Source of the DNA: Candidatus Woesearchaeota archaeon
GTDB taxonomy: Archaea > Nanobdellota > Nanobdellia > Woesearchaeales > JAGVYF01
NCBI GenBank assembly: GCA_016211195.1
Contig: JACQSS010000016.1
Location: forward strand, 3,475 to 27,474
Length of the DNA stretch: 24,000 nt
Reading direction: 5' to 3'
The translations under genes were made by a program, and so were the position numbers. Within the stretch, counting starts at the first letter, position 1. Each line of letters begins with the position of its first letter. Below the pieces are notes generated by a model that saw only the letters and a list, made by a program, of their open reading frames with translations, did not search any database and was not told the DNA's origin. This document shows positions 2 to 24,000 of the stretch, in pieces.

Positions 2-502
2 GATTTCACGGCAAACCCGGGCTGGCGTCAAAACCAAAATCCTTGGTGGTCACTAGCTGCATTAGGCACCCATTGCATTGACTTGGCTGGGTGGCTGCTT
101 GGGTATGATGATGTCAAAAACATTGTCTGCTCAACAAGCAATACACGATTTGGCAGCAATGATGAGGAAGCATTGCTCGCATTCAGACTCGGGCATACGT
201 CGGTGGAAATCTATACCTCTGTGCTCTACAAAGCACCATACCAATTAGACATCTATGGCACCAAAGGAAGTGCACACGCGACATGGACATTGGGCCCGCG
301 CGGAGGGGGAACCATTACCATTAATGGAAACCCGCTTGCATTTGAGCAGCGTAACCCCTACGCAGAGCAATTGCGTGCGTTACAGCGACAGATACAAGGA
401 GAGAAAACAGCATTGGCAACACTGGGCCAAGGTATCTGGAATGTCCGGCTGATGGAAGCTGCTTACAGAAACAATTTTCTAAATCGCCCAATGGCATCCT
501 GA
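2..502 (+). CDS. Gfo/Idh/MocA-family oxidoreductase, C-terminal part (5' end lies outside the window)
   Basis: The frame is open from nt 2 with no stop. The translation DFTANPGWRQNQNPWWSLAALGTHCIDLAGWLLGYDD... matches the conserved GxHxIDxxxWLLG region of the C-terminal domain of this family. The ORF-track start at 83 is only a TTG inside the longer frame. Confidence 0.7.
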   Translation, partial: DFTANPGWRQNQNPWWSLAALGTHCIDLAGWLLGYDDVKNIVCSTSNTRFGSNDEEALLAFRLGHTSVEIYTSVLYKAPYQLDIYGTKGSAHATWTLGPRGGGTITINGNPLAFEQRNPYAEQLRALQRQIQGEKTALATLGQGIWNVRLMEAAYRNNFLNRPMAS

Positions 503-1659
503 ATCACAGGGACTGGGGTCGTTGAGAAAGATAACCGGATATTGTCGCCAAAGCCTTTTCCAAAGCAAGAACCATAGACTGTGGCGATGCCATGTTCCAT
601 CAGCAGGTTGAAGATGTACTTATCATGCTCGACGCCCTTTGGGATGTGTCGCCCGAAATTGGGGAACATATAGAACGCGCCTTCCGGTTTCTGAACATCT
701 ATTCCTGACGCACGAAGGCCATCATAGAGTACGTCTCTGCGTGCCTTGAACTCAGTGACCATTGCAGTGACAGCCTTTGCCTCCTCTTCCCTATTGTCTA
801 ATGCTTCCTTCCCTGCATATTGAAGGAAGGTTGCAACCCCCGCGGTCTGGCTGTAGTTGCCCAGTTTCACCAATTGGGAAATCCTCGGATGTCGGGTCAC
901 AAGGTAACCGAGACGCCAACCAGTCATGGCATACGTTTTTGACAAGGTAAAACAGGAGATGATATTTTCAAGATCAATGGCAGATGCGCTGAAATGCTTG
1001 CCTTCATACACAATGCGTTCATATGCTTCGTCTGCAAGCAGATAGACACCATTCCTATAACAGAGATCAGCAATTTTCCTTGTCTCCTCTTCCTTGAAGA
1101 CTTTACCCGTTGGATTATGCGGCGAGTTGTAATAAAAGAACCGGATACCGCTCTTGAGAACAGGCTCAAGTGTTTTCCAGTCTATTGAAAAGTCTTCCCT
1201 GAGCGGAACTTCGGTGAAGTCCACTTCTGTGTAGGGAGCAAAATTTTCCAGAGCACAACTCCAGCACGGGGAGAAGCCAGCACCACGCTCTCCGCGGAAA
1301 AGATTGAACGAGAGTTGCAGTGCCTCCTGCCCTGCATAGGTCACCACAATATCTGATAATGACAGACCATTTGCGCCGTTGATGTCGTGGAGTTTCCGCA
1401 GGATAGCCTCCTTGAACGGGACCTCTCCACCGGATAATGGATACTTTGTCCGGTTGTCATCCAACGCTTTCCGGGCAGCATCTTTGATATATTGCGGAGT
1501 CGGGAAATCCACTTCGCCGCGCTGAAATAGGATGAAATCTTTTCCCGTCCTCATGCGGAACTCATTGGCTTTTGTCTTGACCAGTTCGCTGATGCTCACG
1601 ATGGGAGACATCCCGACGTTTTCCATGGACCGGCTGAAGATATCGTTTGCGAATGTCAT
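463..1659 (-). CDS. Class I/II PLP-dependent aminotransferase (aspartate/aromatic aminotransferase-like)
   Basis: Carries the PLP-lysine signature SKTYAMTGWRLGY and the NSPHNPTGKV motif, at about 400 aa. I set the start to ATG 1659 (MTFAND...) because a minus-strand TATA (TTTAATAAA, plus coordinates 1682-1690) lies 22 nt upstream. The longer ORF to 1707 would start upstream of that TATA. Confidence 0.85.
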   Translation of the reverse strand: MTFANDIFSRSMENVGMSPIVSISELVKTKANEFRMRTGKDFILFQRGEVDFPTPQYIKDAARKALDDNRTKYPLSGGEVPFKEAILRKLHDINGANGLSLSDIVVTYAGQEALQLSFNLFRGERGAGFSPCWSCALENFAPYTEVDFTEVPLREDFSIDWKTLEPVLKSGIRFFYYNSPHNPTGKVFKEEETRKIADLCYRNGVYLLADEAYERIVYEGKHFSASAIDLENIISCFTLSKTYAMTGWRLGYLVTRHPRISQLVKLGNYSQTAGVATFLQYAGKEALDNREEEAKAVTAMVTEFKARRDVLYDGLRASGIDVQKPEGAFYMFPNFGRHIPKGVEHDKYIFNLLMEHGIATVYGSCFGKGFGDNIRLSFSTTPVPVIQDAIGRFRKLFL

Positions 1660-1721
1660 ACAGAGCAACGCTGAATTATTGTTTATTAAAGTGTGGTGCA
1701 GAACCATCTTCTACAGCATCC

Positions 1722-1885
1722 GGCTCCATTGAAAAGTTCCTCCGCTTGCGCTCCGTGGCCATCGATTCGCATTGAGGGTAATTAAGTAATGACAAAAATT
1801 CCTCTTGTAATCCCTTTTTTGCTTGCAAGAGAAGGAAACCAATGCTCACATAATTGATGGCTATCATGAAATTTTCAATGTGACC
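1722..1885 (+). mobile_element. MITE copy 1 (164 bp), flanked by the 8-bp direct repeat CAGCATCC (1714-1721 and 1886-1893)
   Basis: Left end is GGCTCCATTGAAAAGTTCC and right end is GAAATTTTCAATGTGACC, which are inverted repeats. It is near-identical to the copies at 9332-9495 and 23344-23506 except for a central stretch of about 30 nt. A perfect 8-bp duplication sits immediately outside both ends. Confidence 0.85.
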
Positions 1886-1896
1886 CAGCATCCAAA

Positions 1897-1905
1897 AGTA
1901 TTAAG
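1897..1905 (+). promoter_or_regulatory. TATA box (AGTATTAAG) with an A-rich BRE position, promoter of the 1930 gene
   Basis: AT-rich octamer 24 nt upstream of ATG 1930. This geometry recurs at at least 10 other first genes in the window. Confidence 0.45.
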
Positions 1906-1929
1906 AACAGATGAGCCTATCCCAAGCAC

Positions 1930-2763
1930 ATGGCACAATATCTTATCTTTGGCAATGGATGGATAGGAAATAAGTTTACTGCGTCTCTCCCAGATGCAGC
2001 ACTGTCACGCGCAGACATTACCAATAAGCAAGCAGTTCACGAAGCCATCGAAGAACATAATCCCAACATAGTCATCAACTGCGCAGGCAAAACCGGACGC
2101 CCGAATGTCGACTGGTGTGAAGATCATCAACGGGAAACATACCTCGCCAATGTGGTTGGACCGATGACATTAAGGGATGCATGCCTGGAACAGAAAGTGC
2201 ATTTTGTCCATGTTGGGTCTGGCTGTGTCTATGAAGGGGACAACAATGGTCATGGCTTTGCAGAAGACGATCTCCCGAATTATTTTGGCAGTTATTACAG
2301 CAAGACAAAAATCTGGGCAGAGGAAGCGCTTGCACAATATCCAGTACTGCAACTGCGGTTGCGCATGCCTGTTGACAAGGGACCGCACGACCGCAACCTT
2401 ATCACCAAACTCGTCAAATACCAGCGTGTCATCAATGTCCAAAACTCATTGAGCATTATTGACGATTTTCTTTACGCAGGTAAATGTCTTATGGAAAAAG
2501 GCTGCACAGGAATTTATAATATCACGAATCCAGGGGCAATGGGGCATGCACGTCTCCTTACTATTTATCAGGAGATTGTTGACCCGACATTTACATTTAC
2601 AGTAATGCCGCTCACTGAGCTCATGACCAAGGTAAAGACTGGGAGATCAAATTGTGTCCTCAGCACAAAGAAACTGGCGCATCATGTGACGCTGGATCCC
2701 ATAGAAACAGCAATGAGAAAATGTCTTGAGCATTACAAACAGGTCATTGATGCTCGGAAATAG
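1930..2763 (+). CDS. NAD(P)-dependent nucleotide-sugar 3,5-epimerase/4-reductase of the NRS/ER (UER1) / RmlD-like type (rhamnose pathway)
   Basis: A long run of motifs is shared with plant NRS/ER as I recall it: AGKTGRPNVDWCEDH, GSGCVYEGD, PNYFGSYYSKTK, LRLRMP, RNLITKL, TGIYNITNPG, DPTFTF and GRSNCVLSTKKL. The N-terminus has the glycine-rich FGNGWIG. Confidence 0.8.
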   Translation: MAQYLIFGNGWIGNKFTASLPDAALSRADITNKQAVHEAIEEHNPNIVINCAGKTGRPNVDWCEDHQRETYLANVVGPMTLRDACLEQKVHFVHVGSGCVYEGDNNGHGFAEDDLPNYFGSYYSKTKIWAEEALAQYPVLQLRLRMPVDKGPHDRNLITKLVKYQRVINVQNSLSIIDDFLYAGKCLMEKGCTGIYNITNPGAMGHARLLTIYQEIVDPTFTFTVMPLTELMTKVKTGRSNCVLSTKKLAHHVTLDPIETAMRKCLEHYKQVIDARK

Positions 2764-4598: not shown

Positions 4599-4916
4599 TT
4601 AAATTCGATAAAACTGTATTGCAACAGGCCGATGATAAACATTGTCCCCTTCTGAATTCTTACCCATGAAAAAAGATCGTCCCTCCTTTGCATAATAGGC
4701 GTTTGCGCCGTTAGGAATCTTCACCTCGGTGCCTATCCTATTCTGGAGGGAATAATCATTTACATGATGACGGCTATCATGTCCAATCCAACATGTAATC
4801 ATTGATAAATCCCTGAGTGCCCGCTCATACACTTTCTCCTTAGTATCTGCTCTTACAAAATAGTCTCTTTTCCACAATAAACGTACTAATCCATCAATCT
4901 CCTTTTCCATATTCAT
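4599..4916 (-). CDS. Hypothetical protein (105 aa), first gene of the MTAP-APRT operon
   Basis: Protein-like translation MNMEKEIDGLVRLLWKRDYF...AIQFYRI. ATG 4916 is preceded by GGTGGGGGG. The long ORF-track version (to 5237) overlaps the divergent 5005 gene and reads as noise. ATG 4976 is an alternative start that would add a hydrophobic N-terminus. Confidence 0.5.
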   Translation of the reverse strand: MNMEKEIDGLVRLLWKRDYFVRADTKEKVYERALRDLSMITCWIGHDSRHHVNDYSLQNRIGTEVKIPNGANAYYAKEGRSFFMGKNSEGDNVYHRPVAIQFYRI

Positions 4917-5004
4917 CCCCCCACCATATCCATGGCTGATAACAGGGGAAATAAATAAAGCTATCGCAGCAACCATTTTAAAGCATCCCTTCCACCTTCC
5001 AGAA

Positions 5005-5805
5005 ATGAACGCAGCAGAGAAGGAGCTTGCAAAAGTGATCGAGCATGACCATGTCGTCCTAATGCCCAGAGGCAATGCTGCCATTTTCACTGCCCTCTTT
5101 GTTGCGAGACAAGCGGGGAAAAAAAGAGCGCTTATCCCTGACCAGGGCGGCTGGTTCACGTTCAAGACATACCCTAAACTGTTGGGAATTGATCTAGTGA
5201 TGATTCCAACGCATGACGGAGTTATAGACCCCCACACGATACCTGTTGCAGATGATGCATGTCTCTTGTATGCACAACCTGCAGGCTACTTTGCTGAGCA
5301 GGATACCCGGACGATTTATGAGCAATGCAAAGGACAGACGCTCGTTATCATGGACGCATCGGGCTCTATTGGCAGCCTCATGTGCTCTGGCCAGCACGCG
5401 GACATGATGGTCGGCAGCTTCAGCGACTGGAAACCAATCAATATAGGCTACGGCGGCTTTATCTCATTCAGAACAAAAGAACTGGCCGACCAGAGCAAAG
5501 ACATCCTCTCCATTAGCAAAGTCCACTCTAGCCTCGAACAGGAATTGCTGGGTAAGCTCAAAACAGTATCGGATCGCTATGAGCAGTTATATCAGCGTGC
5601 AGAAGCCATCAAACGGGATTTAGCTGCATATGACATCATTCACCCCACGAAAAAGGGAATTAATGTTATCGTTGCCTACAACAATGAGGCCGAAAAGAAA
5701 AAGGTTATTGCTTACTGTGACCAGGAAAAGCTTGAGTACACGATCTGCCCACGTTTTATCAGGGTAAACCGGAAGGCAGTCAGCATTGAGGTTAAGCGAT
5801 TATGA
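5005..5805 (+). CDS. PLP-dependent transferase-like protein (fold type I, DegT/DnrJ/EryC1-like pattern)
   Basis: The pattern HVVLMPRGNAAIFTAL...VIMDASGSIGS...ADMMVGSFSDWKPINIGYGGFI resembles the DegT-type core with its PLP lysine. The TATA TTTTAAAG (4976-4983) lies 21 nt before the ATG. Confidence 0.5.
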   Translation: MNAAEKELAKVIEHDHVVLMPRGNAAIFTALFVARQAGKKRALIPDQGGWFTFKTYPKLLGIDLVMIPTHDGVIDPHTIPVADDACLLYAQPAGYFAEQDTRTIYEQCKGQTLVIMDASGSIGSLMCSGQHADMMVGSFSDWKPINIGYGGFISFRTKELADQSKDILSISKVHSSLEQELLGKLKTVSDRYEQLYQRAEAIKRDLAAYDIIHPTKKGINVIVAYNNEAEKKKVIAYCDQEKLEYTICPRFIRVNRKAVSIEVKRL

Positions 5806-6410
5806 AAGATATGCTTGTGCCCTTGAGTGCAGCATTCCTTGTCTTCCTTGTTTTTTCATATACTTTACAGTGGGTGGCATTTGACCGGTCATTCTATGAT
5901 GCACAATACGAAAAAAATGGCATCTACGCACGTTTCATACCGGATGAGGTGAACAATGTCACTGATGAGCTTTTGCAGTATCTGCAAGATGAAAAAAGTG
6001 ATATTGCCACCTTGTTCTTCAATAGCAAAGAAAAAGAGCACCTGCGTGATGTCAAAAGATTGCTGCAACGGGAAAGACTTTTTGGTCTCTGGATGACTGT
6101 CCTGTTCGGTGTGCTGCTCGCCATACGACGACAAGCCATCCAGCGCATCATGACGCTGGCGGGGTTGCTTGGTGGGGGTGTCATTGCCATTCTTGGACTG
6201 CTTATTTCCCTGTCGTTCCCCATTGCATTTACACTGTTTCATTTACTTCTGTTTACTAATGACCTCTGGATGCTAGACCCGGAAACAGACAGACTCGTGA
6301 TGCTTTACCCCGAACCGTTCTGGATTGCTATTGCACTGCGGTGGGCTTTACTGATGGCAATAAGTTACAGTCTCATCTTGACGCTAGGCGTTATGGAACA
6401 ACGACGATGA
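5802..6410 (+). CDS. Integral membrane protein, TIGR01906/DUF1461-like
   Basis: An N-terminal TM segment is followed by a soluble stretch with FNSKEKEHLRDVKRLL, then 3-4 further TM helices. That layout recalls TIGR01906. An ATGA start/stop overlap links it to the upstream gene. Confidence 0.45.
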   Translation: MKDMLVPLSAAFLVFLVFSYTLQWVAFDRSFYDAQYEKNGIYARFIPDEVNNVTDELLQYLQDEKSDIATLFFNSKEKEHLRDVKRLLQRERLFGLWMTVLFGVLLAIRRQAIQRIMTLAGLLGGGVIAILGLLISLSFPIAFTLFHLLLFTNDLWMLDPETDRLVMLYPEPFWIAIALRWALLMAISYSLILTLGVMEQRR

Positions 6411-6957
6411 TTTTGTATTTCGGTGTTTCGCCGTAGGGTTCAAAGCCCGTTCCACGGGGCAATTTTTCTGCCCCCGCCAGCACATCGACCACATAGGTGC
6501 CGGATGCCAATGACTTACCCACTTCCACACCAAGGGCAAAGTTCCTGCTTTTGTCAGGAGAAATTGACTCGATACGTTCCTGCCCTGCTGCTGGCAGCAG
6601 GAACAGCTCATGTCCTTCAGTACCAAATTTCGGATCTATTTGACTGTTGACTGCCCCATTTGGCACGATAGTGACCTTGAATTTTCGTTCTTCAGCAAAA
6701 ATATTGAGAATCCGAACACCATAGGCATCGTACTCCCCCCGTCGTATTGTCTTTGTTTTATCACCGATGCAGACCTGTTCTGTGCCGCAGCGCAACGTCC
6801 CTATTTGACGATCAAGGTCTTCAAAGGTCCGTTGCTGCAAGCCAGTTGCTTTGCCGTAAATATTCATGATGAAATTGATGGAAAACCCGAAAATAACGAG
6901 TGAAAGGACAATAATAACCAGAAAGTTCATCGAAAGCTCAATGGCTTTCCTGTTCAT
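6391..6957 (-). CDS. Archaeal type IV pilin-like protein (class III signal peptide)
   Basis: The N-terminus MNRKA/IELSMNFLVIIVLSLVIFGF has a basic residue plus small residue, then a hydrophobic helix. The C-terminal region parallels the 8023 gene (SGTYVVDV versus SGVYICTV). An ATGA overlap links it to the upstream gene. Confidence 0.65.
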   Translation of the reverse strand: MNRKAIELSMNFLVIIVLSLVIFGFSINFIMNIYGKATGLQQRTFEDLDRQIGTLRCGTEQVCIGDKTKTIRRGEYDAYGVRILNIFAEERKFKVTIVPNGAVNSQIDPKFGTEGHELFLLPAAGQERIESISPDKSRNFALGVEVGKSLASGTYVVDVLAGAEKLPRGTGFEPYGETPKYKIIVVVP

Positions 6958-7754
6958 GACAGTTCCCCGGACTCAATGAATGCGACGCGATCGGGCAAGT
7001 CGTATTCAATTGTTCCTGTCTTTGGCACTTCTCTGAATTCGGTCGCTGAAATTTTATCATGGCGGGTAAAGCCATAATCCACGCGCATGGTGACGCTCGC
7101 CAACAATTCCCGGCCCGGCACTGTCTGTAAGGCTAAAGGAATATCGAAAACGCGGGGCTGACGCAATTCCTTCAAGAAGACATTATTGAGCCGCTTCTCA
7201 GCCAGCCTATCTTTGGAAAAGAAACTGATTTGATAGACCTCCAAGCCTCGGTCTGGAGCAACATCCTGCGCTAACTCGATGAGCTGCAGCGTGACACTGA
7301 ACTTGTCTTTCTTCTTCAAGTCCATGGGTTCGGTGTAATCAACCTTTATCTTCATCTTGCCGAATGCAGTCTCCCGTTCTACTTCCCGTAACTGGCGCGG
7401 TGTTTGGACCTTGACACCGATCGTGCATTTTCTGGTTGTATCATCGCAAAACAAGGTAAGGACTTTTGCATCTTCTGGTTTCTGGCCTGGCTTTTCAACT
7501 TTATACTTCCCTTCGCATTTCGGTGTCTTGCAATCCTCTGGGCAACTGCAGACACTCTCCTCAGCAGTTTTCTCGCACAGACCATTGCCGCATTCCTTGG
7601 GGATGGGTGAATAGGTACATTTCCCGTCAACGCAGGCCGCCTTCTGGTGCTCTTTCTGTGAGCAGTCCGTAACAGATGTACATTCCGGTGCTTCGCAACC
7701 CATGATGAGAAAAGCAAGCGCAACAATCACCAGAAGAATATATCGGCTCACCAT
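6954..7754 (-). CDS. Cysteine-rich secreted or lipoprotein-like surface protein
   Basis: Has an N-terminal signal or anchor ending in the lipobox-like LIMGC. A Cys-dense module follows, including ECGNGLCEKTAEESVCSCPEDC. Start is set to ATG 7754 (GGTGGGAG SD upstream), with ATG 7775 as an alternative. Confidence 0.6.
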   Translation of the reverse strand: MVSRYILLVIVALAFLIMGCEAPECTSVTDCSQKEHQKAACVDGKCTYSPIPKECGNGLCEKTAEESVCSCPEDCKTPKCEGKYKVEKPGQKPEDAKVLTLFCDDTTRKCTIGVKVQTPRQLREVERETAFGKMKIKVDYTEPMDLKKKDKFSVTLQLIELAQDVAPDRGLEVYQISFFSKDRLAEKRLNNVFLKELRQPRVFDIPLALQTVPGRELLASVTMRVDYGFTRHDKISATEFREVPKTGTIEYDLPDRVAFIESGELS

Positions 7755-7796
7755 CTCATCTCCCACCACAGCCATAATTATAAGCCTTTTGGTGAG

Positions 7797-8022: not shown

Positions 8023-8574
8023 TTATGCCGTCACCTTTAGGAAGAATTGTTTAGTGTCGTACACAGGCTTATCTTCTCCTCGTTCACCGAGCTGATCCAA
8101 GGTCACATCAATATTCGCCTTGTGCACCATCACCGTACAGATATAGACACCGCTTTCAAGCCCGTTTTCAGTGAGAATAATCTTATATCCCTTGGCTTCA
8201 CTTGCTTTAGTTGTCTGTGCTGGAGAAGTTATTATAGGTCTCTTATCGGCATCGATTGTCTCCCCATCCTCATCCTGACAAATAGCCATAGAAAATCTGG
8301 CGTTGACTGCAGGATAATCGTTCTTGTTATAGTAGCCAACGCTTAGCGTCTGCTTGCCATTCCTCGTAATGGAGACTGTGTCAGAAATGGTTATGGGATT
8401 ATCCGGCGTCGGTTTTGCCTCCAATTCCGTCAGTGGAATCACGGACTCTGCCCGCTCACCGGCAAACTTGAAGATGCTTCTCGTGAGTGTCAAAGCAAGA
8501 CCGAGAACAACGAATGAGATGACGACAATGACAATAGCATTGACAGAAAGTGCTAAGTCCCCTTTCTTATTCAT
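8023..8574 (-). CDS. Archaeal type IV pilin-like protein (class III signal peptide)
   Basis: N-terminus is MNKKG/DLALSVNAIVIVVISFVVLGLAL. ATG 8574 has a GAGGTG SD 6 nt upstream. The ORF-track start at 8583 is a GTG. Confidence 0.7.
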   Translation of the reverse strand: MNKKGDLALSVNAIVIVVISFVVLGLALTLTRSIFKFAGERAESVIPLTELEAKPTPDNPITISDTVSITRNGKQTLSVGYYNKNDYPAVNARFSMAICQDEDGETIDADKRPIITSPAQTTKASEAKGYKIILTENGLESGVYICTVMVHKANIDVTLDQLGERGEDKPVYDTKQFFLKVTA

Positions 8575-8617
8575 GCGATACACCTCTTTTGCACTGTGTC
8601 TCTCTACAGCTTCGAGC

Positions 8618-9213: not shown

Positions 9214-9331
9214 ACCACTTTCTGCGGGACGTGAGGTACTTTTTGATAGATACCGTGTAGAGAACTACGACGAGCGCGAAGCGAGAGTACTGCTCTAACC
9301 CAAGTGAGCGTAGCCTCTTCAAGGGCTGCCC

Positions 9332-9495
9332 GGTCCCATTGAAAAGTTCCTCTGCTTGCGCTCCGTGGCCATCGGTTCGCATGTGCTTTTGCCTGTTAAT
9401 GGCAAAAAATCCTCTTGGAATCCCCTTTTTGCTTGCAAGAGAAGGAAGCCAATACTCACATAATTGATGGTCACCATGAACTTTTCAATGCGACC
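9332..9495 (+). mobile_element. MITE copy 2 (164 bp), flanked by the perfect 8-bp direct repeat GGCTGCCC (9324-9331 and 9496-9503)
   Basis: Left end is GGTCCCATTGAAAAGTTCC. The reverse-complemented right end is GGTCGCATTGAAAAGTTC, matching 17 of 18. It has the same length and orientation as copy 1. Confidence 0.88.
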
Positions 9496-9508
9496 GGCTG
9501 CCCAAAAC

Positions 9509-9516
9509 ATTTATGA
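9509..9516 (+). promoter_or_regulatory. TATA box (ATTTATGA), promoter of the 9539 gene
   Basis: Lies 22 nt upstream of ATG 9539 and is preceded by the purine-rich AAAAC. Confidence 0.4.
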
Positions 9517-9538
9517 ATGGATCATGAACATTGTTCTT

Positions 9539-10747
9539 ATGGCCGATTGGGATCCACGGGATTTAGAAAAAAGGAATTTGGAGGCTTATATTCTGGCGAA
9601 TGGCCCAATGGGGTTAGTACAAGGTTTGTTTTATAGGGATGATGCCATTGCACGAGTACTGGCAGAACAAAGTCATCCTGGACACGAACCTCTCAAGAAA
9701 TCTTTAATGGATGTCCTTATCGGTGAAAACCCTGCTATGTACCTTAAGAAGCAGGCTGTTGCTGCATCGGTGGATGCAATCCCGCCAAAAGCAGAGCATG
9801 GATTTCTACCGGTGGCCGTTAAAGCATCTGCTGGAATGGACCAACAAATAGCAGCGGTTAGATTTTTGGCCCCACTGTCAGCTCATAATGATGCTGTTTA
9901 TCACCGTCTTTGGAAAGTTGCTCGAGGGGATACCTCTCAAATGATAAATGTGCGTAACGCTGCCATGAAGTCATTATCGTATCAGGCATTTCCTGCCAGA
10001 AAACGCGACCTAAAACAAGTTGCGCTTAATCCGACTCGTAAAGATGTGGACAGAATTCTTGCCTATAAGATCATGGCCGGAGCCGCAATGTTTACTGACC
10101 CGGAAGTTTATGGGCTTGTTTGTAAAATTGCTTCAGATGAAAGCATAAGGGAATTATATAAAAAGCGAAGAATTTTAGCACCATCTGCGCGATTCTGGTT
10201 TACCGCTGATATGAAGCTTAGAAGAGAATATCCAGATCAACATCGGGATGGAAAAAGCGAGGCCGAAGTTAAATTCGCTGTCGTTGAAAAAGTGCAGAAG
10301 GAATTTCAGGAAAGTTTGTTTGAGGTCATTAATCATGTTTTGGAAGCAACGTACTGCGTAGATTTACACAATAATGTCGTGGTTATGAACGGACTTCAAA
10401 ATGGCTTTCCCCATACATCTCAAACTTTAACAAAAGAACTTTGTCGCCTAATTGTACAAGATCCATCCTATCACGTACAGAATCTCTGCAAATATGCAGA
10501 AAAGATGAGAGCGATTTCTAAACAAGAGGCGGAACATATTGTAGAGACACTTGAGCAAGTGAAACCACATTTTGAAAGGGTTGACCACGCTAGCCGAAGC
10601 TGGATTGATGTGACTCTTAACGAAGTTACGTATCGATTACGCAAAAAAGAAGATGGTTACATGGATAGACTCTACCTTGATAAGATCTGGAAAGGTGAAT
10701 TAACCCCAGAGCAAATCATTTCTTCAAGACAAATTTACCAGATTTGA
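9539..10747 (+). CDS. Hypothetical protein (402 aa), N-terminal HEAT/ARM-like repeats possible, low-GC gene
   Basis: Long clean ORF. The start at 9539 fits the TATA spacing, whereas the ORF-track ATGs at 9464-9488 lie inside the MITE. The VRNAAMKSLS and QIAAVRFLAPL stretches are HEAT-like. Two 60-nt lines inside the gene give 37% GC by spot count. Confidence 0.6.
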   Translation: MADWDPRDLEKRNLEAYILANGPMGLVQGLFYRDDAIARVLAEQSHPGHEPLKKSLMDVLIGENPAMYLKKQAVAASVDAIPPKAEHGFLPVAVKASAGMDQQIAAVRFLAPLSAHNDAVYHRLWKVARGDTSQMINVRNAAMKSLSYQAFPARKRDLKQVALNPTRKDVDRILAYKIMAGAAMFTDPEVYGLVCKIASDESIRELYKKRRILAPSARFWFTADMKLRREYPDQHRDGKSEAEVKFAVVEKVQKEFQESLFEVINHVLEATYCVDLHNNVVVMNGLQNGFPHTSQTLTKELCRLIVQDPSYHVQNLCKYAEKMRAISKQEAEHIVETLEQVKPHFERVDHASRSWIDVTLNEVTYRLRKKEDGYMDRLYLDKIWKGELTPEQIISSRQIYQI

Positions 10748-10782: not shown

Positions 10783-11775
10783 TTACTTGAGCAGTTGCTG
10801 CACAGCGCGACACAACTGCTCTTTCCGTTCAAGAGGAAGACGTGACCCATAGAGCTGGACAACTTCTGCCGCAAGATATGACCCGACACGAGCCGCCTTC
10901 TCGAGCAGCGCTCCATGAAGGTAAGCATGCAGGAAGCCGGCAGCATACATGTCTCCTGCGCCCGTTGTATCAACAGCAGCAACACGGTAAGCTGGGACGT
11001 GTACAACAAAGCCTTGATGGGCGACATAGGAGCCGTTTGCTCCATCTTTCACCACAGCGATAGGTGCATATGTACCCAAGATCTTTGCGGCATCAGCAGG
11101 GTTCTCATTATCTGTGTAGGCGACTGCTTCGTCCTTGTTGGCAAAGACGATGGTTGCAAATTCTGTCAGCACCCGTGCAAGCAATGATTTGTTTCGCCGG
11201 ACAAGATGCGCATCGGCGAGGTCGACAGAGACCGGTTTTCCGTGGTTCTTTGCAATGCCCATTGCGTACAACGCCGTGGCTTGCAGCCGTGGCTCTTCGA
11301 GCTGATAGCCTGTCAGGTGCAACAACCGGCTCTGTTCAAGGTTCCCGGTCACTAAATCAGTCTGCTGCAGTGAGAGGCACGCACCGAGGTATGTCAGCAT
11401 GGTACGTTGCGCATCATCTGTGATAATGCTCATGCAGCTACCTGTCATGTCCTCTGCCCGCACAAGGTCAGGGAAAACACCATATGATCGGAGGTCCTGT
11501 TCAAAGAGTGCCCCATCTGCATCGTTGCCTGCCTTGCCCGCATAGACCACCCTGTTTCCCAAAAGACTCAGGCCGACAAGCGTATTTGCCGTCGAGTCAC
11601 CGGCAGACTTCTTGAATGCATGATACTGCAGATGCTGCTTGACCAGCGTTGCTGTATCAAAACCGATGAGCGACATACTGCCTTTCTGGACATTGAACGT
11701 CTCCAAGACTGTTTCATCGGCTGACACGATGACATCAATCAATGGATTCCCTATACCGAAGACATCGTATTTCAT
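10783..11775 (-). CDS. PfkB-family kinase, adenosine-kinase-like
   Basis: Has the N-terminal FGIGNPLIDV and the C-terminal PfkB signature DTTGAGDMYAAGFL, at 330 aa. A TATA (TATATATA, 11799-11806) lies 23 nt upstream of the ATG. Confidence 0.85.
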   Translation of the reverse strand: MKYDVFGIGNPLIDVIVSADETVLETFNVQKGSMSLIGFDTATLVKQHLQYHAFKKSAGDSTANTLVGLSLLGNRVVYAGKAGNDADGALFEQDLRSYGVFPDLVRAEDMTGSCMSIITDDAQRTMLTYLGACLSLQQTDLVTGNLEQSRLLHLTGYQLEEPRLQATALYAMGIAKNHGKPVSVDLADAHLVRRNKSLLARVLTEFATIVFANKDEAVAYTDNENPADAAKILGTYAPIAVVKDGANGSYVAHQGFVVHVPAYRVAAVDTTGAGDMYAAGFLHAYLHGALLEKAARVGSYLAAEVVQLYGSRLPLERKEQLCRAVQQLLK

Positions 11776-11862: not shown

Positions 11863-12393
11863 ATGGCAAAAATCCGCAAGGCAGTCGCGTACCGGAAGCT
11901 GGAACGACCATATACACGGATTTCAAAGTTCCGAGAAAAGAATTATGTCCGTGTCCGGCCGCACAGCGTCATTTCACGGTTTGATAATGGGGAGACAAAG
12001 AAGGACGTCTACCTGTATCCGCTCGTCGTGGACCTCATCTCAAAAAAGGCGTTGCAGATCCGCCATAATGCAATTGAAAGTGCCAGACAAACCAGCAACA
12101 GATTGCTGGAGAAGGAAATCGGCAAGACTGGCTGGCATCTTAAAATCCGTGTTTATCCCCACCATGTTCTCCGTGAAAATCCATTGGCATCCGGAGCAGG
12201 TGCAGACCGTATGAGTACGGGAATGCAGGCTAGCTTTGGCAAGCCTATCAGCAGTGCTGCGCAGGTCCATGAGGGACAACCAGTCATGACGCTCGGCATC
12301 ACCAAAGACAAATTTGAAGTCGCGAAAAAGGCATTACGCCGTGCTGCATCAAAGTTGCCATGCACCTGCCAGATTGTTGTTGCACGGTCGTAA
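11863..12393 (+). CDS. rpl10e: 50S ribosomal protein uL16 (L10e)
   Basis: The N-terminus AYRKLERPYTRISKFREKNYVRV and the core GADRMSTGMQASFGKP are typical of archaeal L10e, at 176 aa. Confidence 0.9.
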   Translation: MAKIRKAVAYRKLERPYTRISKFREKNYVRVRPHSVISRFDNGETKKDVYLYPLVVDLISKKALQIRHNAIESARQTSNRLLEKEIGKTGWHLKIRVYPHHVLRENPLASGAGADRMSTGMQASFGKPISSAAQVHEGQPVMTLGITKDKFEVAKKALRRAASKLPCTCQIVVARS

Positions 12394-17180: not shown

Positions 17181-17828
17181 ATGGCAGTGAGTGGTTTCAT
17201 CGCACGTTTTTTCCCATTCTTGAATTCTCTATTTCAGAGAAGGACAAACATCAAGCTCGGCCTGTACGGTCCACCCAATGCCGGCAAAACCACAATGGCT
17301 AACAGCATCTGCCAGGAATGCCTTGGCGAGGATATGGGTGTTGTATCCAATATTGCCCATGAAACACGGGAAATACAAGTCAAAGAGCAAATAACAATCA
17401 AGTCTGGAAAAAAGCAGCTTTCCTTTACATTAGTCGACACACCCGGCATTGCAACAAAAATAGACTATGAAGATTTCCTCAAGTATGGGATGAATGAGAG
17501 GGAAGCAAAACGCAGGGCAAAGGAAGCAACCAAAGGTGTCATCGATTCCATCAAGTGGCTGGATGATATGGACACCGTCATCGTCGTGCTTGACTCAACA
17601 AAGGACCCCATGTCGCAGGTAAATATCACCATTATCGGTAATCTTGCTGCCCGGAATATACCGGTACTAATCGTCGCAAACAAGATAGACCTTAAGAAAG
17701 CAGACATCAAGCGTGTGCGAGCCGCCTTCCCGCAATATGAAGTGGTAGGCATCAGCGCAAAATACGGGAATAACCTGACTGAGTTTTACGATGCATTATT
17801 CAAAATCGTGGAAAAAAGAGGTCTGTGA
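17181..17828 (+). CDS. Small P-loop GTPase (archaeal GTP-binding protein)
   Basis: Motifs are G1 GPPNAGKT, G3 DTPG, G4 NKID and G5 SAK. Confidence 0.8.
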   Translation: MAVSGFIARFFPFLNSLFQRRTNIKLGLYGPPNAGKTTMANSICQECLGEDMGVVSNIAHETREIQVKEQITIKSGKKQLSFTLVDTPGIATKIDYEDFLKYGMNEREAKRRAKEATKGVIDSIKWLDDMDTVIVVLDSTKDPMSQVNITIIGNLAARNIPVLIVANKIDLKKADIKRVRAAFPQYEVVGISAKYGNNLTEFYDALFKIVEKRGL

Positions 17829-17831
17829 ACA

Positions 17832-18218
17832 ATGCTAACCCTACAGTTTATTCCGTATGCGGAAATCGAGGATCTCACATCGGAGAAACGGATTTCCAAA
17901 CTGTTGAATGTGGTCAAAGAAAACAAGATTGTCGTGCTTGAAGGACGGCTGCGCAAAGAAGAGGAAGCAGATCTCATCAAGCAGACAATGGAATCCATCG
18001 ATGAGGACTTCAAGGGCATCGAGCTGTCTGTGATTTTCCCGGATATGAGGAACAAAATGGCGCTCGACAACCTCAGGAAACTGTTCATCAACCTCCTACT
18101 GGGTGATAGAACAGGAATTACCATCATCGGTCCGGCATCAGTAGTGAAAGAAATCAAGAAGGATCCGAACAAGATTGAACTCCTGACACAACCACTCAGG
18201 AGGAAGAAGAAACGATAA
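17832..18218 (+). CDS. Conserved archaeal protein, DUF2073-like (recalled family)
   Basis: 128-aa acidic/basic protein starting 4 nt after the GTPase stop. The position and size match the archaeal GTPase-associated gene as I recall it. Confidence 0.55.
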   Translation: MLTLQFIPYAEIEDLTSEKRISKLLNVVKENKIVVLEGRLRKEEEADLIKQTMESIDEDFKGIELSVIFPDMRNKMALDNLRKLFINLLLGDRTGITIIGPASVVKEIKKDPNKIELLTQPLRRKKKR

Positions 18219-18220
18219 CC

Positions 18221-18604
18221 ATGCCACACCAATGCGTCCGTTGCAGCACGTTGTACGATGACGGGGCTAAAGAAATTCTAGCGGGCTGCACCTGTGGTGG
18301 CCGACTCTTTTTTTACATCAAGAAGAGTGCGCTCGAAAAAGCAAAGCAGCTTCTCCCGCCGACACTGTCTGTAGAAGAAAAACAGAAGATAGAGAAAGAT
18401 ATTTATGAAATCATTGGGCAGGACCCCGAAGAGGAGAATCCGATTGTCCTTGACCTTGAATCCATCAACGTGCTACAGGAAGGGAAATTCGAACTCGATC
18501 TCGTTAATCTGTTCTCAAAAGAAAAACCCCTCGTGTACAAACTGGAAGAAGGGAAATATGTCATTGATTTGACGTCGAGCTTTGACAAGCTGCGGAAGGA
18601 ATGA
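18221..18604 (+). CDS. Zn-ribbon-containing protein (DUF2072-like)
   Basis: The N-terminus CVRCSTLYDDGAKEILAGCTCGG is a Cx2C...CxC ribbon. The gene starts 3 nt after the upstream stop. Confidence 0.6.
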   Translation: MPHQCVRCSTLYDDGAKEILAGCTCGGRLFFYIKKSALEKAKQLLPPTLSVEEKQKIEKDIYEIIGQDPEEENPIVLDLESINVLQEGKFELDLVNLFSKEKPLVYKLEEGKYVIDLTSSFDKLRKE

Positions 18605-18696
18605 TTATAGTGAATCTCATCATTTATCGAAAAAAGGTAGGATTCACTAGAATAGTAAATTGCTATGGACAGTTCGAAAATTTTTGCAATTTGCTA

Positions 18697-18969
18697 TTAG
18701 AATTCCCGCCACAAAAATCCAGTCACAGTAAGTATTGTTAATCCAAGGAAGAGGGAAACAAATGGATTCTGGACAACGGGCACAATGTCAGCGATATTCC
18801 ATATCCCTCTCCAGAAGAGCACGGCCCCGCTACCAGCGACGATTAAAAGGAGATATTCCTTGTCACGCCTTGTCACCTTGGCCCATGGGATCATCCCAAA
18901 ATACATCAAGACGGCCACAAACGTCAGAAATGCAATGATAGCCACAAAGATAAGCGCAAGCGGTTCCAT
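18697..18969 (-). CDS. Hypothetical three-TM membrane protein (90 aa)
   Basis: Shows three hydrophobic helices. TTTAAAA lies upstream of the ATG. Confidence 0.5.
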   Translation of the reverse strand: MEPLALIFVAIIAFLTFVAVLMYFGMIPWAKVTRRDKEYLLLIVAGSGAVLFWRGIWNIADIVPVVQNPFVSLFLGLTILTVTGFLWREF

Positions 18970-19039
18970 ACTGATTCCATGGAGTCGTGCCTTTTAAATT
19001 ATTCGCATAGATACCAGCAATGGTTTCATATTAGCCGCA

Positions 19040-20236
19040 TTATTTCGCACTTACAATTTCAATCACATCACAGTGCTGCAGCAGGTGTTCTTTTCCGACC
19101 GTACGGCGCGTTTTCACATCAATCGCGCGGATGAAATTCTTGCCCAAGTCAGTATGCAACCGATAAGCAAAATCCAGCGCTGTGCTCGCTGGCGGCAAAA
19201 GGAAGCAGTCTGGCAACACCCGCCCATCTGAATCAGCAAGCTTATTGATGCCGCCGGGAAAGATGGCCATATATTTCAGGAAATCAAAGACAGCCTTGTC
19301 CAGAACTTCCTGAACACCAGTGCTCCCGAATGGTACAAGCACATTTTTTCTGATAAAGTCGAGTGCACTCTTCTGCTTCATGGAGAGTTTATCCTCATGC
19401 ATAGTAAATGTATTGTCGCCGGGCAGGTAGGAGATGAGCCCGGCCCGTGCAGCTTCACGCAGAGCAGCTTCGGCCTCTGCAGAACAGGGAATAAAGAGGT
19501 ACTGGGGGAACATTCCCTTGAGGTGGGTGAAATTCTTGTCTGCACCAGGCACATCAATTTTGTTACAGGCAATGAGCATTGGCTTTGACACGGCACGCAG
19601 ATATGCTGCAAGCTCAAACAATTGTTTTTCCGTCCATTCATGCGGCTTTTCGGGATTCAAATAGAGTTTCTGGATAGCTTCTTTGACAAGGTCTTCAGAG
19701 ACTTTGAGTCCTGACAGCTGTGCACCCAGCGCCTTGTGGATCTCCTTCTTTTCCTGCACAATCTGGCGGGCAAAGCGCTCCCAGCCTTTCTTAATAAGGC
19801 CGAGGTACCACATGTTCAGCTCCGTCTCCAGAAACCGGATGTCATTTTCCGGATTGTAGCTTAACGGTTGGACTGGTTCCCCTTTCTCATTGACAGAGCC
19901 AGAGATATCAACAACGTGGATAAGTACGTCTGCTTGTCGTAGGTCGTCGAGAAACTGATTACCCATGCCATGGCCGAGATGGGCACCCGGAACAAGACCT
20001 GCAACATCCATCAGGTCAACGGGTACAAAACGGATATCTTTAACGCAGTAGCCAAAACGGGGATTGCATTGCACCCCAAAATGCTTGGCAGCGCACGGAA
20101 CGCGGACATAGCCGACTGCATGGTTGGGCTTTATTGTCGTGAATGGATAGTTTGCTATCTCCACTTCAGCCAGTGTCGCTGCCTTGAAAAAAGTGCTTTT
20201 TCCGCAGCTTGGTTTTCCTACGATGCCGACAAGCAT
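19040..20236 (-). CDS. OBG/YchF-related GTPase, Ygr210-like subfamily, with a C-terminal TGS-like domain
   Basis: Motifs are G1 GKPSCGKST, G2 YPFTT, G3 DVAGLV and G4 NKID, at 398 aa. The TATA TTTTTATAG lies about 25 nt upstream. Confidence 0.85.
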   Translation of the reverse strand: MLVGIVGKPSCGKSTFFKAATLAEVEIANYPFTTIKPNHAVGYVRVPCAAKHFGVQCNPRFGYCVKDIRFVPVDLMDVAGLVPGAHLGHGMGNQFLDDLRQADVLIHVVDISGSVNEKGEPVQPLSYNPENDIRFLETELNMWYLGLIKKGWERFARQIVQEKKEIHKALGAQLSGLKVSEDLVKEAIQKLYLNPEKPHEWTEKQLFELAAYLRAVSKPMLIACNKIDVPGADKNFTHLKGMFPQYLFIPCSAEAEAALREAARAGLISYLPGDNTFTMHEDKLSMKQKSALDFIRKNVLVPFGSTGVQEVLDKAVFDFLKYMAIFPGGINKLADSDGRVLPDCFLLPPASTALDFAYRLHTDLGKNFIRAIDVKTRRTVGKEHLLQHCDVIEIVSAK

Positions 20237-21938: not shown

Positions 21939-22534
21939 TTTGTGCCTCCTGAATGGTTTTCCTGTTCTGTGCGATACCCCCGACCAGCCCCCTCAAGCCC
22001 CCGTATTGCATCCATCGCCCACCACAGCCATTGTTTTTTGTGCTCGGGATTTTTCCCGATGATGCCCGTAACCTCATCCCACGTGTGCATGCCCCCTTGG
22101 TAGTCCCTCGGTTCACGGAGAGAGCAGATGGCGTCAATGGCCCCATACTTGAGGTCACTTTCTGTTGCCCGGACATTGTGGGCATTCCACATATGGTGAT
22201 GATGTTGGCCTTGACGATGAAGTTCAAGCGCAGTCCGCAACCGTCTTTGGCGCTCAGGGGAACTCTTATCCTTCGGTGCCAAGCCTTGGATCACTGCCCA
22301 CTCTAGCTTGTTGCCCGGTCCAACCAAATCGTGAGGACGCTGACCATCATCAACCTGCACATTGAGTGCATGGAGATAATATTCCACCCGGGAACTGTGA
22401 TTCATTACTGCAGCTACCCATGCAGTGATTTCATCCAAAGAAGGATTTTCGGGATCACCAAAGTGCTGCGTGGCAATGATGATATCATTGAGCAGAAATG
22501 TCATCAGACCTGACGGTGCCATTCTTTGTGTCAT
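21935..22534 (-). CDS. Hypothetical metal-binding protein with an HD-like motif set (DUF5662-like by recall)
   Basis: The ordered motifs H-x3-H...RPHDLVGPGNKLEW...LELHRQGQHHHHMW...AIDAICS parallel the H/HD/HH/D pattern of HD-fold DUF5662 proteins. The TATA (AAAATAAG on the minus strand) lies 24 nt before the ATG. Confidence 0.45.
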   Translation of the reverse strand: MTQRMAPSGLMTFLLNDIIIATQHFGDPENPSLDEITAWVAAVMNHSSRVEYYLHALNVQVDDGQRPHDLVGPGNKLEWAVIQGLAPKDKSSPERQRRLRTALELHRQGQHHHHMWNAHNVRATESDLKYGAIDAICSLREPRDYQGGMHTWDEVTGIIGKNPEHKKQWLWWAMDAIRGLEGAGRGYRTEQENHSGGTK

Positions 22535-22558
22535 AACAGGTAGAAGAGCAAGCTCCTA

Positions 22559-22603
22559 CTTATTTTCTCGTTGTACAATTATGTTCAACAGTAAATTTAT
22601 AAA
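22559..22603. promoter_or_regulatory. Divergent promoter pair: CTTATTTT (22559-22566, minus-strand operon) and TTTATAAA (22596-22603, trmB)
   Basis: The TATAs lie 24 nt and 22 nt from ATG 22534 and ATG 22626 respectively. AAATTTATAAAT is a near-palindrome. Confidence 0.5.
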
Positions 22604-22625
22604 TGGGTGCAGATTTAGTGAAGTA

Positions 22626-23354
22626 ATGACCATCGAGATGGAACTGCGCGGCCTTGATTTTACAGATAATGAAATAAAGGTGTATATTACCCTGCTTCGG
22701 ATTGGGAGCGTACGAGCGGGCAAATTAGCGCAAGAGTGCCGCCTGGAAAGAACAAGTACATATAACGCATTAAAACGGTTGAGCCAGCAGGGATTGGTGT
22801 CAACAGTTACAGAAGCGAACAGGAAAGTATTCACTGCGGCTGAACCAGACAAGCTGATTGACATGTTTAAAGAAAAAGAAGAGCGTGCAGCCCTCCTCAT
22901 CCCCCAACTGGAACAATTGAAGAAATTTGAACGGGAAGTAGAAACAATCCAAAAATTTAGAGGGTTTGCCGGTATCAAAACAGTCTTGAATGATGTCCTC
23001 AGGACATGTTCTGCAGGAGGCGAATACCTTATCATGGGGTCAGAAGGACAACTCTCCGAGCGGATGCCGACCTATGCAAGGATTTTTGTGGCACGAAAGG
23101 ATCAGAAACGCATACGAGCAAGGATACTTATCCGTGAAGGGGTTGTTGCAACAGGAAATATCAGGAGCAAGTTTACAAAAGTCAGACATGTCCCTCAAGA
23201 GGTGATTTCTCCGGCAGTTACAAATATCTATGGAGACAAGATTGCTATCATTATCTGGTCAGAGACGCCTGAGGCCATCATTATCCACAATGCAGATACA
23301 GCCAAGACATACCGTTCTTATTTTGAATTCATGTGGAAACATGGGTCCCATTGA
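22626..23354 (+). CDS. trmB: TrmB-family transcriptional regulator, with its last 3 codons and stop supplied by the MITE
   Basis: The N-terminal winged HTH LDFTDNEIKVYITLLRIGSVRAGKLAQECRLERTSTYNALKRLSQQGLV is typical of TrmB. I set the start at ATG 22626, 22 nt after a TATA. The ORF-track start at 22425 runs through the divergent promoter and the neighbouring gene. Confidence 0.8.
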   Translation: MTIEMELRGLDFTDNEIKVYITLLRIGSVRAGKLAQECRLERTSTYNALKRLSQQGLVSTVTEANRKVFTAAEPDKLIDMFKEKEERAALLIPQLEQLKKFEREVETIQKFRGFAGIKTVLNDVLRTCSAGGEYLIMGSEGQLSERMPTYARIFVARKDQKRIRARILIREGVVATGNIRSKFTKVRHVPQEVISPAVTNIYGDKIAIIIWSETPEAIIIHNADTAKTYRSYFEFMWKHGSH

Positions 23355-23506
23355 AAAGTTCCTCCGCTTGCGCTCCATGGCCATCGGTTCGCATGTAACT
23401 CTTGTGGTAATAGCAAAAATTCCTCTTACAATCTCTTTTTTGCTTGCTCGAGTAACGAGTCAATGCTCATAGAATTGATGGCCATCGTGAACTTTTCAAT
23501 GGCGCT
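23344..23506 (+). mobile_element. MITE copy 3 (163 bp), flanked by the 8-bp repeat GAAACATG (23336-23343) / GAAGCATG (23507-23514), a 7 of 8 match
   Basis: The left end GGTCCCATTGAAAAGTTCC is identical to copy 2. The right end GAACTTTTCAATGGCGCT has a degenerate outermost 4-5 nt. The internal 3' subregion has diverged (CTCGAGTAACGAG hairpin). Confidence 0.8.
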
Positions 23507-23520
23507 GAAGCATGCAAAGG

Positions 23521-23528
23521 CATAAATA
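23521..23528 (+). promoter_or_regulatory. TATA box (CATAAATA), promoter of the PHP gene
   Basis: Lies 22 nt upstream of ATG 23551. It also contains the inferred ancestral TAA stop of trmB. Confidence 0.4.
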
Positions 23529-23550
23529 GCCGGAATTTCTACGGGACCGA

Positions 23551-24000
23551 ATGCTTAAAGCTGATTTCCACATGCACAGCAGTGAGGACCCTCTGGACTG
23601 GCCAGCTGTGAAGCACACTTCATTTCAGCTCGTCGATGAAGCTGCGCGGCTTGGCTATGAAGTGATCTCACTCACGCTTCATGAGACGCTACACTGCCCG
23701 AAGGAACTGCAGGACTATGCAAAGCGTAAGGGTCTTCTCCTCATTCCCGGCATGGAAGCCACTGTCGAAGGGAAGCACGTCCTTGTGCTTAATCCGCCAG
23801 AGGGCACCTGTAATCCCTCTACCTTTGAAAAGGTGGAAAAAGTAAAGGCAGAAGGTGCGTTAATCATTGCCGCGCACCCTTACTACCTCAAGTCATACTG
23901 CTTGGGTGAAAAGCTCCGTGAACACATACATCTTTTTGATGCAATTGAGCATTGCCATTTCTATACCAATTACTTAAACAGAAACAAGCAAGCGCTTTCC
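23551..24000 (+). CDS. PHP-domain metal-dependent phosphoesterase (3' end lies outside the window)
   Basis: I translated it by hand and the frame is open to the window end. It begins MLKADFHMHSSEDP (the PHP DxHxHS motif), then has GMEA and AAHP further on. It is absent from the ORF track because no stop lies in the window. Confidence 0.7.
   Translation, partial: MLKADFHMHSSEDPLDWPAVKHTSFQLVDEAARLGYEVISLTLHETLHCPKELQDYAKRKGLLLIPGMEATVEGKHVLVLNPPEGTCNPSTFEKVEKVKAEGALIIAAHPYYLKSYCLGEKLREHIHLFDAIEHCHFYTNYLNRNKQALS

Follow-up and report, generated by a model that had tools for sequence, protein, structure and literature searches.

Three promoter-adjacent copies of a probable non-autonomous transposable element in a woesearchaeal genome

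A short repeat in a compact archaeal locus

The window, by which we mean the whole stretch of 24,000 nt that was analysed, comes from a Candidatus Woesearchaeota MAG, the Woesearchaeota being placed within the Nanobdellati/DPANN archaea. DPANN genomes rank among the smallest and most compact of any cellular organisms, and about 10% of the window (2,420 nt) is non-coding. Its genes are archaeal in character and include ELP3, a TrmB-like regulator, a YGR210-like GTPase and the origin-associated OapB/OapC. The TrmB-like protein (P0001) is 100% identical to [quoted passage not shown], encoded on a contig of 47.6 kb. Exact-protein matches outside the MAG were confined to two short Logan contigs of SRR12113385 (L002 and L127), and no exact-protein record was found for four other window proteins.

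Three copies of a repeat of 163-164 nt, all in one orientation, are spread over the window (Table 1), giving a density of ~125 per Mb, or about one copy every 8 kb. The positions and common orientation given in the preliminary description proved exact to the base, and an nhmmer profile built from the three copies recovered the same three as its sole matches in the window, each at E ~1e-54. The edges of the repeat are sharp, and its length fits the generic range of prokaryotic MITEs (about 50-800 bp, without a transposase ORF). Pairwise identity between copies is 78-83%, with the divergence clustered in a central hypervariable block whilst the left 51 nt of the three-copy alignment are near-invariant. 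Every copy has also preserved one oligo-T tract per strand (alignment columns 73-77 and 95-99), which could serve to terminate read-through arriving from either direction. One of the two Logan contigs, L127, ends 28 nt inside copy 3; breakage of the assembly induced by the repeat was considered there and not accepted, since the ends of L002 (unmapped) fall in a repeat-free part of the window.

Table 1 Repeat copies, target-site duplications (TSDs) and adjacent promoter-like sites, in window coordinates
Feature	Positions	Strand	Description
Left TSD, copy 1	1714-1721		CAGCATCC; 7-14 nt from the minus-strand aminotransferase ATG (1705-1707)
Repeat copy 1	1722-1885	+	164 nt; left end GGCTCCATTGAAAAGTTC, reverse-complemented right end GGTCACATTGAAAATTTC
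Right TSD, copy 1	1886-1893		CAGCATCC, 8/8
Promoter-like site after copy 1	1893-1932	+	BRE-like CAAAAG and TATA-like TATTAAGA
Left TSD, copy 2	9324-9331		GGCTGCCC
Repeat copy 2	9332-9495	+	164 nt; best-preserved TIR, 17/18
Right TSD, copy 2	9496-9503		GGCTGCCC, 8/8
Promoter-like site after copy 2	9504-9541	+	BRE-like AAAACA and TATA-like TTTATGAA
Left TSD, copy 3	23336-23343		GAAACATG
Repeat copy 3	23344-23506	+	163 nt; right tip degenerate, AGCG for GGTC
Right TSD, copy 3	23507-23514		GAAGCATG, 7/8 against GAAACATG
Promoter-like site after copy 3	23515-23553	+	BRE-like CAAAGG and TATA-like CATAAATA

The repeat is bounded by terminal inverted repeats (TIRs) of ~18 bp, best seen in copy 2, where the left end GGTCCCATTGAAAAGTTC and the reverse-complemented right end GGTCGCATTGAAAAGTTC agree as previously described. 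A 13-nt TIR core, CATTGAAAAGTTC, occurs six times in the window when up to two mismatches are allowed, against 1.4 occurrences expected and with no shuffle reaching six, and it is found at every one of the six repeat ends. The TIR starts with GG at five of these ends, the exception being the degenerate right tip of copy 3, and with GGTC at four. Each copy is flanked at the same offsets by an 8-bp direct repeat whose octamer differs from copy to copy; 23 of the 24 duplicated positions are identical overall, and both duplications are retained at all three copies. Among random 164-nt segments of the window, flanking octamers match at 8/8 with a frequency of ~1e-4 and at 7/8 or better with a frequency of ~8e-4. 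Beyond the TSDs the flanks of the copies are unrelated, a short A-rich, promoter-like motif excepted, and we therefore regard the three insertions as independent events and not as products of segmental duplication. The inverted ends, the 8-bp duplications and the independence of the insertions had all been proposed in the preliminary description, and each is borne out by these comparisons.

The age of the divergence can be read from the same features. Because the copies differ from one another by ~20% while their TSDs remain identical at nearly all positions, most of the divergence is probably older than the insertions, and because it is also focused in the central block, with the left portion near-invariant, most of it probably lies among source elements. 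As judged from the alignment, most between-copy differences would thus have arisen before insertion, which would imply that the family is larger and older and comprises several source lineages.

Coding capacity, RNA folding and the insertion into the TrmB-like gene

No reading frame is open across all three copies, and a scan of 30 window ORFs against Pfam revealed no transposase domain. With the aim of finding gene calls that cross other copies, or the terminus of a parental transposase, a six-frame translation profile of the repeat was compared with 5.8 billion proteins and returned no match at E <= 1e-3. The element is therefore without coding capacity, and the earlier conclusion that it is non-autonomous, drawn from the lack of a conserved frame and of a transposase in the window, is upheld by the frame check and the Pfam scan.

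A non-coding repeat of this length could instead encode a small RNA of conserved structure, or be a regulatory RNA element, and not a relic of transposition. The repeat does fold into a long hairpin (z = -6.0 as RNA and -4.5 as DNA): copy 2 reaches -59.1 kcal/mol as RNA, and, owing to several G-U pairs, folding is more favourable for the + strand than for the - strand. However, a long hairpin is expected from any element with TIRs, not one of the 50 predicted pairs is compensatory, the covariation term is unfavourable (+1.45), and mismatches in the terminal helix, such as the G-A of copy 1, are left uncompensated. The repeat has no Rfam match, whilst the 8-bp flanking duplications and the interruption of a gene end described below mark transposition. 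We consider an RNA gene or regulatory RNA very improbable.

Copy 3 gives direct evidence of insertion. It entered the TrmB-like gene at a point three codons short of the stop, and its TIR supplies a new stop (CAT TGA), so that the actual protein ends ...FEFMWKHGSH*. Removal of copy 3 together with one TSD yields a predicted C-terminus of ...FEFMWKHAKA*, which agrees with the ending ...FEFMWK[HN]AK[K/x..] of ~60 homologues, and the actual protein departs from these homologues precisely at the copy 3 junction. Since excision restores the homologue C-terminus, copy 3 is a real insertion, and it interrupts what was formerly a continuous gene end. A look for empty sites in related genomes had been suggested, and in a between-species comparison with orthologues the reconstructed empty site of copy 3, TGGAAACATGCAAAGG, is colinear with the uninterrupted orthologous junctions TGGAAACACGCATCAG (L128) and TGGAAGCACGCGAAAA (L130); in these two relatives the TrmB gene directly abuts the next gene and the repeat is absent.

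Taken together, the TIRs and the 8-bp duplications identify the repeat, with high confidence, as a non-autonomous MITE that was inserted by a DDE-type transposase acting in trans. Such a transposase would insert the 163-164-bp non-coding element into a target cut in staggered fashion, 8 bp apart, and repair of the staggered cuts would then generate the 8-bp duplication.

Placement of the copies beside promoter-like sites

All three copies occupy the same kind of site, a regularity that the preliminary description did not mention, as it did not identify the host. A + strand ATG lies 35-36 nt past the right TSD of every copy (1930, 9539 and 23551), and between the two stands a promoter-like sequence (Table 1), its A-rich motif (AAAAGTAT, AAAACATT and CAAAGGCA) directly outside the right TSD. 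After copy 1 the TATA-like box begins 13 nt from the tip of the right inverted repeat (IRR), and its end lies 23 nt ahead of the ATG of an NAD-dependent epimerase-like gene; after copy 2 the respective distances are 14 and 21 nt, and after copy 3 they are 14 and 22 nt. An independent gene call of 402 aa (P0121) and the N-termini of homologues both confirm the start at 9539, and the start at 23551 opens a PHP-domain-like ORF (MLKADFHMHS...) which continues past the end of the window. Other first-in-operon genes of the window show the same arrangement, an A-rich BRE-like stretch followed by TTTATAAA and then 21-23 nt to the ATG. A BRE-like element and a TATA box placed 21-23 nt before the start codon is the architecture expected of leaderless archaeal mRNAs.

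These sites were located and scored with a promoter weight matrix trained only on ten other promoters, the repeat-adjacent sites being left out. Sites that score as well as the repeat-adjacent ones occur at 1.1e-3 per position and strand, and the repeat-adjacent sites are weak, at 6.8-7.6 bits against 12-17 bits for canonical promoters of the window. The probability that copies 2 and 3 would match copy 1 in both offset and orientation is ~5.5e-5 under a null of uniform placement in non-coding DNA in either orientation, a figure that concerns three copies and an offset spotted post hoc. We infer from this arrangement that the repeat is guided to, or retained at, a fixed spot just upstream of the BRE/TATA elements of leaderless genes, and that its right end faces the promoter.

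Alternatively, insertion may have been essentially random, with only those copies tolerated that landed just upstream of a core promoter. Intergenic space in this genome is tiny, as the low non-coding fraction of the window indicates: copy 1 sits between divergent genes whose ATGs were formerly 50 nt apart, and at copy 3 the pre-insertion stop codon of the upstream TrmB gene, TAA, fell within the downstream TATA-like box. Survival alone, however, does not predict a single orientation, and the uniform non-coding null already given speaks against it, as does the non-coding sequence that remains in the window, which includes gaps of 506, 435, 412 and 247 nt without any copy. Copy 2 likewise had 118 nt of spare upstream spacer and still took the same offset. 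We regard a survival artefact of this kind as rather unlikely.

A transposase that reads the pre-initiation site, perhaps by contacting promoter DNA that is bent or bound by TBP/TFB, would act differently: it would insert the element always in the same orientation, just outside the BRE of leaderless genes and 13-14 nt ahead of the TATA box. On the strength of three copies, we put this forward as a doubtful but possible explanation. If true, it would explain how ~100 copies per Mb are tolerated in a DPANN genome of roughly 1 Mb that is 90% coding, and it would constitute an archaeal counterpart of the sigma-A targeting of bacterial TnGBS/ISLre2 and of the targeting of yeast Ty3 via TFIIIB. We know of no transposon described as targeting archaeal BRE/TATA promoters.

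At copy 1 the insertion may also have altered the expression signals of the neighbouring genes. The two divergent genes probably once shared one palindromic TATA box, from which the insertion would have moved the aminotransferase gene 172 bp away; the insertion also puts a TIR core, CTTTTCAA, 21 nt before the aminotransferase ATG.

Candidate transposase families and relation to known elements

The preliminary description had assigned the repeat to the IS6/IS26 family by its 8-bp duplication, its GG-initiated ends and a resemblance to a terminus of IS257. The IS257 terminus cited there, GGTTCTGTTGCAAAGTT, is correct (PMC4856351), and its 13/17 match to the left ends of the repeat is real, being reached by none of the 2,649 GG-starting 17-mers of the window (p < 4e-4). 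The repeat ends also match the bacterial IS6 consensus GGTTCTGTTGCAAA, with its cTGTt and caaa motifs, at 10 of 14 positions (PMC6807381), and these similarities are higher than those to every other family tested. IS6 elements generate an 8-bp duplication (PMC7986276), and the family is widespread in archaea and has MITEs listed in ISfinder (PMC7986276, PMC6807381), whilst all 27 IS families have been reported from Nanobdellota (PMC13343696). In TIR length the two also agree, the archaeal consensus measuring at least 18 bp and the TIR of the repeat ~18 bp, although the catalogued derivatives that lack autonomy, at 227 and 336 bp, exceed the 164-bp repeat in size (PMC7986276, PMC6807381).

Other features fit the IS6/IS26 assignment less well. 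G1, G2 and G7 of the IS6 TIR are nearly invariant, with G7 present in all bacterial members but one and in many archaeal ones (PMC6807381), whereas all six repeat ends carry A at position 7. The retention of both TSDs at every copy is easier to obtain by simple insertion than through a replicative cointegrate. In the IS26 mechanism, intramolecular replicative events do not leave a single copy with both TSDs. The constant promoter-adjacent placement is a further difference, promoter targeting being, to our knowledge, no known trait of IS6 elements; no IS6 transposase is found among the window ORFs; and the ends of another family, ISH6, match nearly as well. The assignment is partly supported, by the duplication length, the GG tips and the likeness to IS257, whilst the absent G7, the competing ISH6 ends, the intact TSDs and the missing partner transposase weigh against it. 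That the repeat is a MITE of the IS6/IS26 family in particular, and that an IS6-type transposase moves it by forming a replicative cointegrate that is then resolved, is a reading we take seriously but hold to fall short of an even chance. The mechanistic novelty that had been attached to an IS6-derived MITE is also weakened: such an element is not unprecedented, two IS6-family MITEs, MITEBth2 and MITEHarch3 (the latter archaeal), having already been entered in ISfinder (PMC6807381, PMC7986276).

ISH6 is an archaeal Mutator-like family (p-MULT 2) with 8-bp TSDs and the ends GGTCGTGTCGCAAAGCGG, GGTCGTGTCGCAAAGTCC and GGTCGCGTCGCAAAG (Table S1, PMC3942029). The repeat matches these ends at 11-12 of 17 positions (p 4e-4 to 2e-3), and the GGTC(G)C tips are identical; the ISH6 form, GGTCG[T/C]GTCGCAAAG.., shares with the repeat both the GGTC tips and a ..G.AAAG core. 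The intact TSDs on every copy fit the simple insertion expected if a partner transposase of the ISH6-like or another prokaryotic Mutator-like (p-MULT) type were to insert the element from an excised circular intermediate at a fixed distance upstream of a promoter. Such targeting is known from bacteria, where the IR junctions of TnGBS, ISLre2 and ISKra4 lie 13-17 bp from a sigma-A promoter with the IRR beside it, and the fixed orientation of all three copies, with the IRR 13-14 nt from the TATA-like box, parallels this p-MULT3/4 rule (PMC3942029). For ISH6 itself, the authors of that study suspect a promoter or intergenic preference, merely speculating on archaeal promoters (Guerillot et al. 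2014, PMC3942029).

The parallel is nonetheless incomplete on several counts. ISH6 duplicates an AT-rich target motif, AANATNTT (as in AAAAACTT, AATTGTTT and AAAACGTT), which is unmatched by the repeat, whose duplicated octamers CAGCATCC, GGCTGCCC and GAAACATG are GC-rich, the A-rich motif lying just outside the TSD; its inverted repeats are also longer, at ~27 bp, and it is known mainly from Halobacteria and not from DPANN archaea. The promoter-targeting TnGBS and ISLre2, for their part, recognise sigma-A -35/-10 sequences, produce 9-bp TSDs and have unrelated ends (3-6/17), whereas the target of the repeat would be a BRE/TATA promoter. No Mutator-like transposase was found in the window, and the placement concerns three insertions only. 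An ISH6-like or other p-MULT partner is accordingly a tentative proposal.

These two families are themselves difficult to tell apart, as ISH6-family and IS257 ends are identical to each other at 13 of 17 positions; for that reason, end similarity combined with an 8-bp TSD cannot separate IS6 from ISH6. The ends of the repeat would appear to belong to a 'GGTnnnnTnGnAAAGT' class common to IS6/IS26 and the archaeal, Mutator-like ISH6 family. Four other families with comparable duplications were set aside as partners, their published ends matching the repeat at chance level: ISL3 (3-7/17), IS1595/IS1016 (5-6/14), ISLre2 (3-6/17) and IS256 (5-7/17). The missing partner is most likely an IS6/IS26 or an ISH6 (Mutator-like) transposase; in a rough split we would give the largest share, under one half, to an IS6-like enzyme, about a third to an ISH6/Mutator-like one and the remaining quarter to others. 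The assignment to a family depends on the length of the TSD and on similarity over short ends, as the known copies number only three and the searches yielded no autonomous element bounded by these ends.

Searches beyond the window were made in several collections. The contigs of the closest relatives (L128-L132; 73% and 71% protein identity) carry no copy of the repeat. The lone genome-contig match to the 20-mer CCATTGAAAAGTTCCTCYGC, in a Cytophagales MAG (L001), is coding, is without the anatomy of the repeat and was dismissed as chance. In metagenome contigs, a short 17-mer pattern gave at least 120 matches, and none among those listed extends beyond ~24 nt by BLAST or nhmmer. Viral contigs searched with the 17-mer, a gapped two-TIR pattern, an internal 21-mer and the full 18-nt TIR yielded 0-4 chance matches, one of which (L133) was rejected as GC-rich, coding and lacking a second end, and BLAST of the repeat against plasmid and phage collections gave no match.

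The abundance of the repeat has a close precedent. A 2024 NAR census of NCBI archaeal assemblies reports a Woesearchaeal genome with 105 MITEs per Mb, among the densest in archaea and comparable with the ~125 per Mb found here; this bulk catalogue of 'cMITEs' does not describe the anatomy, partner or insertion sites of individual families, and, drawing as it does on NCBI assemblies, the census may have included the present MAG (PMC11602168). One transposon copy per ~8 kb in a compact DPANN genome is notable, though MITE-dense Woesearchaeal genomes have thus already been flagged. MITEs in general are common elements. The class of element described here is ordinary, and only its promoter-adjacent, oriented placement might be new. 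For the classification of such elements, the likeness of IS6 and ISH6 ends warns against assigning MITEs to IS6 by TIR and TSD alone. For the biology of their hosts, the placement of the three copies hints at promoter-targeted transposition in archaea. If it holds genome-wide, it would represent the first promoter-targeted DDE transposition in archaea, and a route by which mobile DNA could persist harmlessly in ultra-compact genomes and possibly rewire their promoters.

Terminal sequences and an assembly end in the repeat

We compared published termini of two insertion-sequence families considered as a source of the MITE ends. The IS257 end of the IS6 family (GGTTCTGTTGCAAAGTT, from PMC4856351) and the ISH31 end of the ISH6 family (GGTCGTGTCGCAAAGTC, from Table S1 of PMC3942029) share 13 of 17 positions, even though the transposases of these families belong to different DDE groups. 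Because their ends are this alike and both families produce 8-bp duplications, a MITE is not assignable to either from its terminal inverted repeat (TIR) and target-site duplication alone.

The only other assembly found of the locus at 22175-23371 is L127, a Logan contig from run SRR12113385, which stops 28 nt inside copy 3. Breakage caused by the repeat could account for this end, but the end is not diagnostic, since other Logan contigs stop at repeat-free places.

Host promoters and gene order

Promoters in this organism are highly regular, with an A-rich BRE-like stretch followed by TTTATAAA and then 21-23 nt to the ATG, a spacing which implies, as judged from sequence, that mRNAs would be mostly leaderless.

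Promoters of regular architecture and promoter-like sites beside the repeat copies
Feature	Location	Strand
Regular promoter architecture	Upstream of genes starting at 11863, 12437, 13362, 16433 and 22626	+
Regular promoter architecture	Upstream of genes 19040-20236 and 10783-11775	-
Promoter-like site beside copy 1	1893-1932	+
Promoter-like site beside copy 2	9504-9541	+
Promoter-like site beside copy 3	23515-23553	+

A near-identical promoter stretch, CACCAAAAGG(C/T)TTATAA, lies upstream of both 6954-7775 and 8023-8583. The proteins of 6391-6957 and 8023-8583 (minus strand) display weak mutual similarity, and their N-termini resemble class III (type IV pilin-like) signal peptides. At 4599-5805, ORFs on the two strands overlap; one matches the DegT/DnrJ aminotransferase profile only in part, over positions 29-202 of 360, and may be a decayed gene.

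Genes for a GTPase and then two origin-associated proteins, OapB (Pfam PF09846) and OapC (PF09845), follow one another at 17181-18604, directly before a 435-nt non-coding gap (18605-19039), and a replication origin may lie close by. The repeats seen in this gap region are weak only: GATATTCCATATC occurs twice, and a 25-nt imperfect palindrome lies at 18604-18653.

Placement of the copies beside promoter-like sites

All three copies share one orientation relative to a TATA-like box, with the right tip (the outer end of the right TIR) 13-14 nt upstream of it, and each box ends 21-23 nt ahead of a plus-strand ATG. This match in offset and orientation, noticed post hoc with n = 3, has p ~5.5e-5 under a non-coding-uniform null.

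At 1705-1739, the TIR core CTTTTCAA of copy 1 now lies 21 nt upstream of the ATG of a divergent aminotransferase gene (463-1707, minus strand), the position expected of a TATA box. Copy 1 splits this gene from the TATA box that it probably once shared with its neighbour.

Within the repeat, runs of 5-6 A (T on the minus strand; alignment columns 73-77, e.g. 9404-9409) and 5-6 T (columns 95-99, e.g. 9426-9430) are invariant among the three copies, and could act as putative bidirectional oligo-T terminators of archaeal type. The promoter-adjacent placement of the three copies is reminiscent of bacterial TnGBS/ISLre2 elements, which target promoters.
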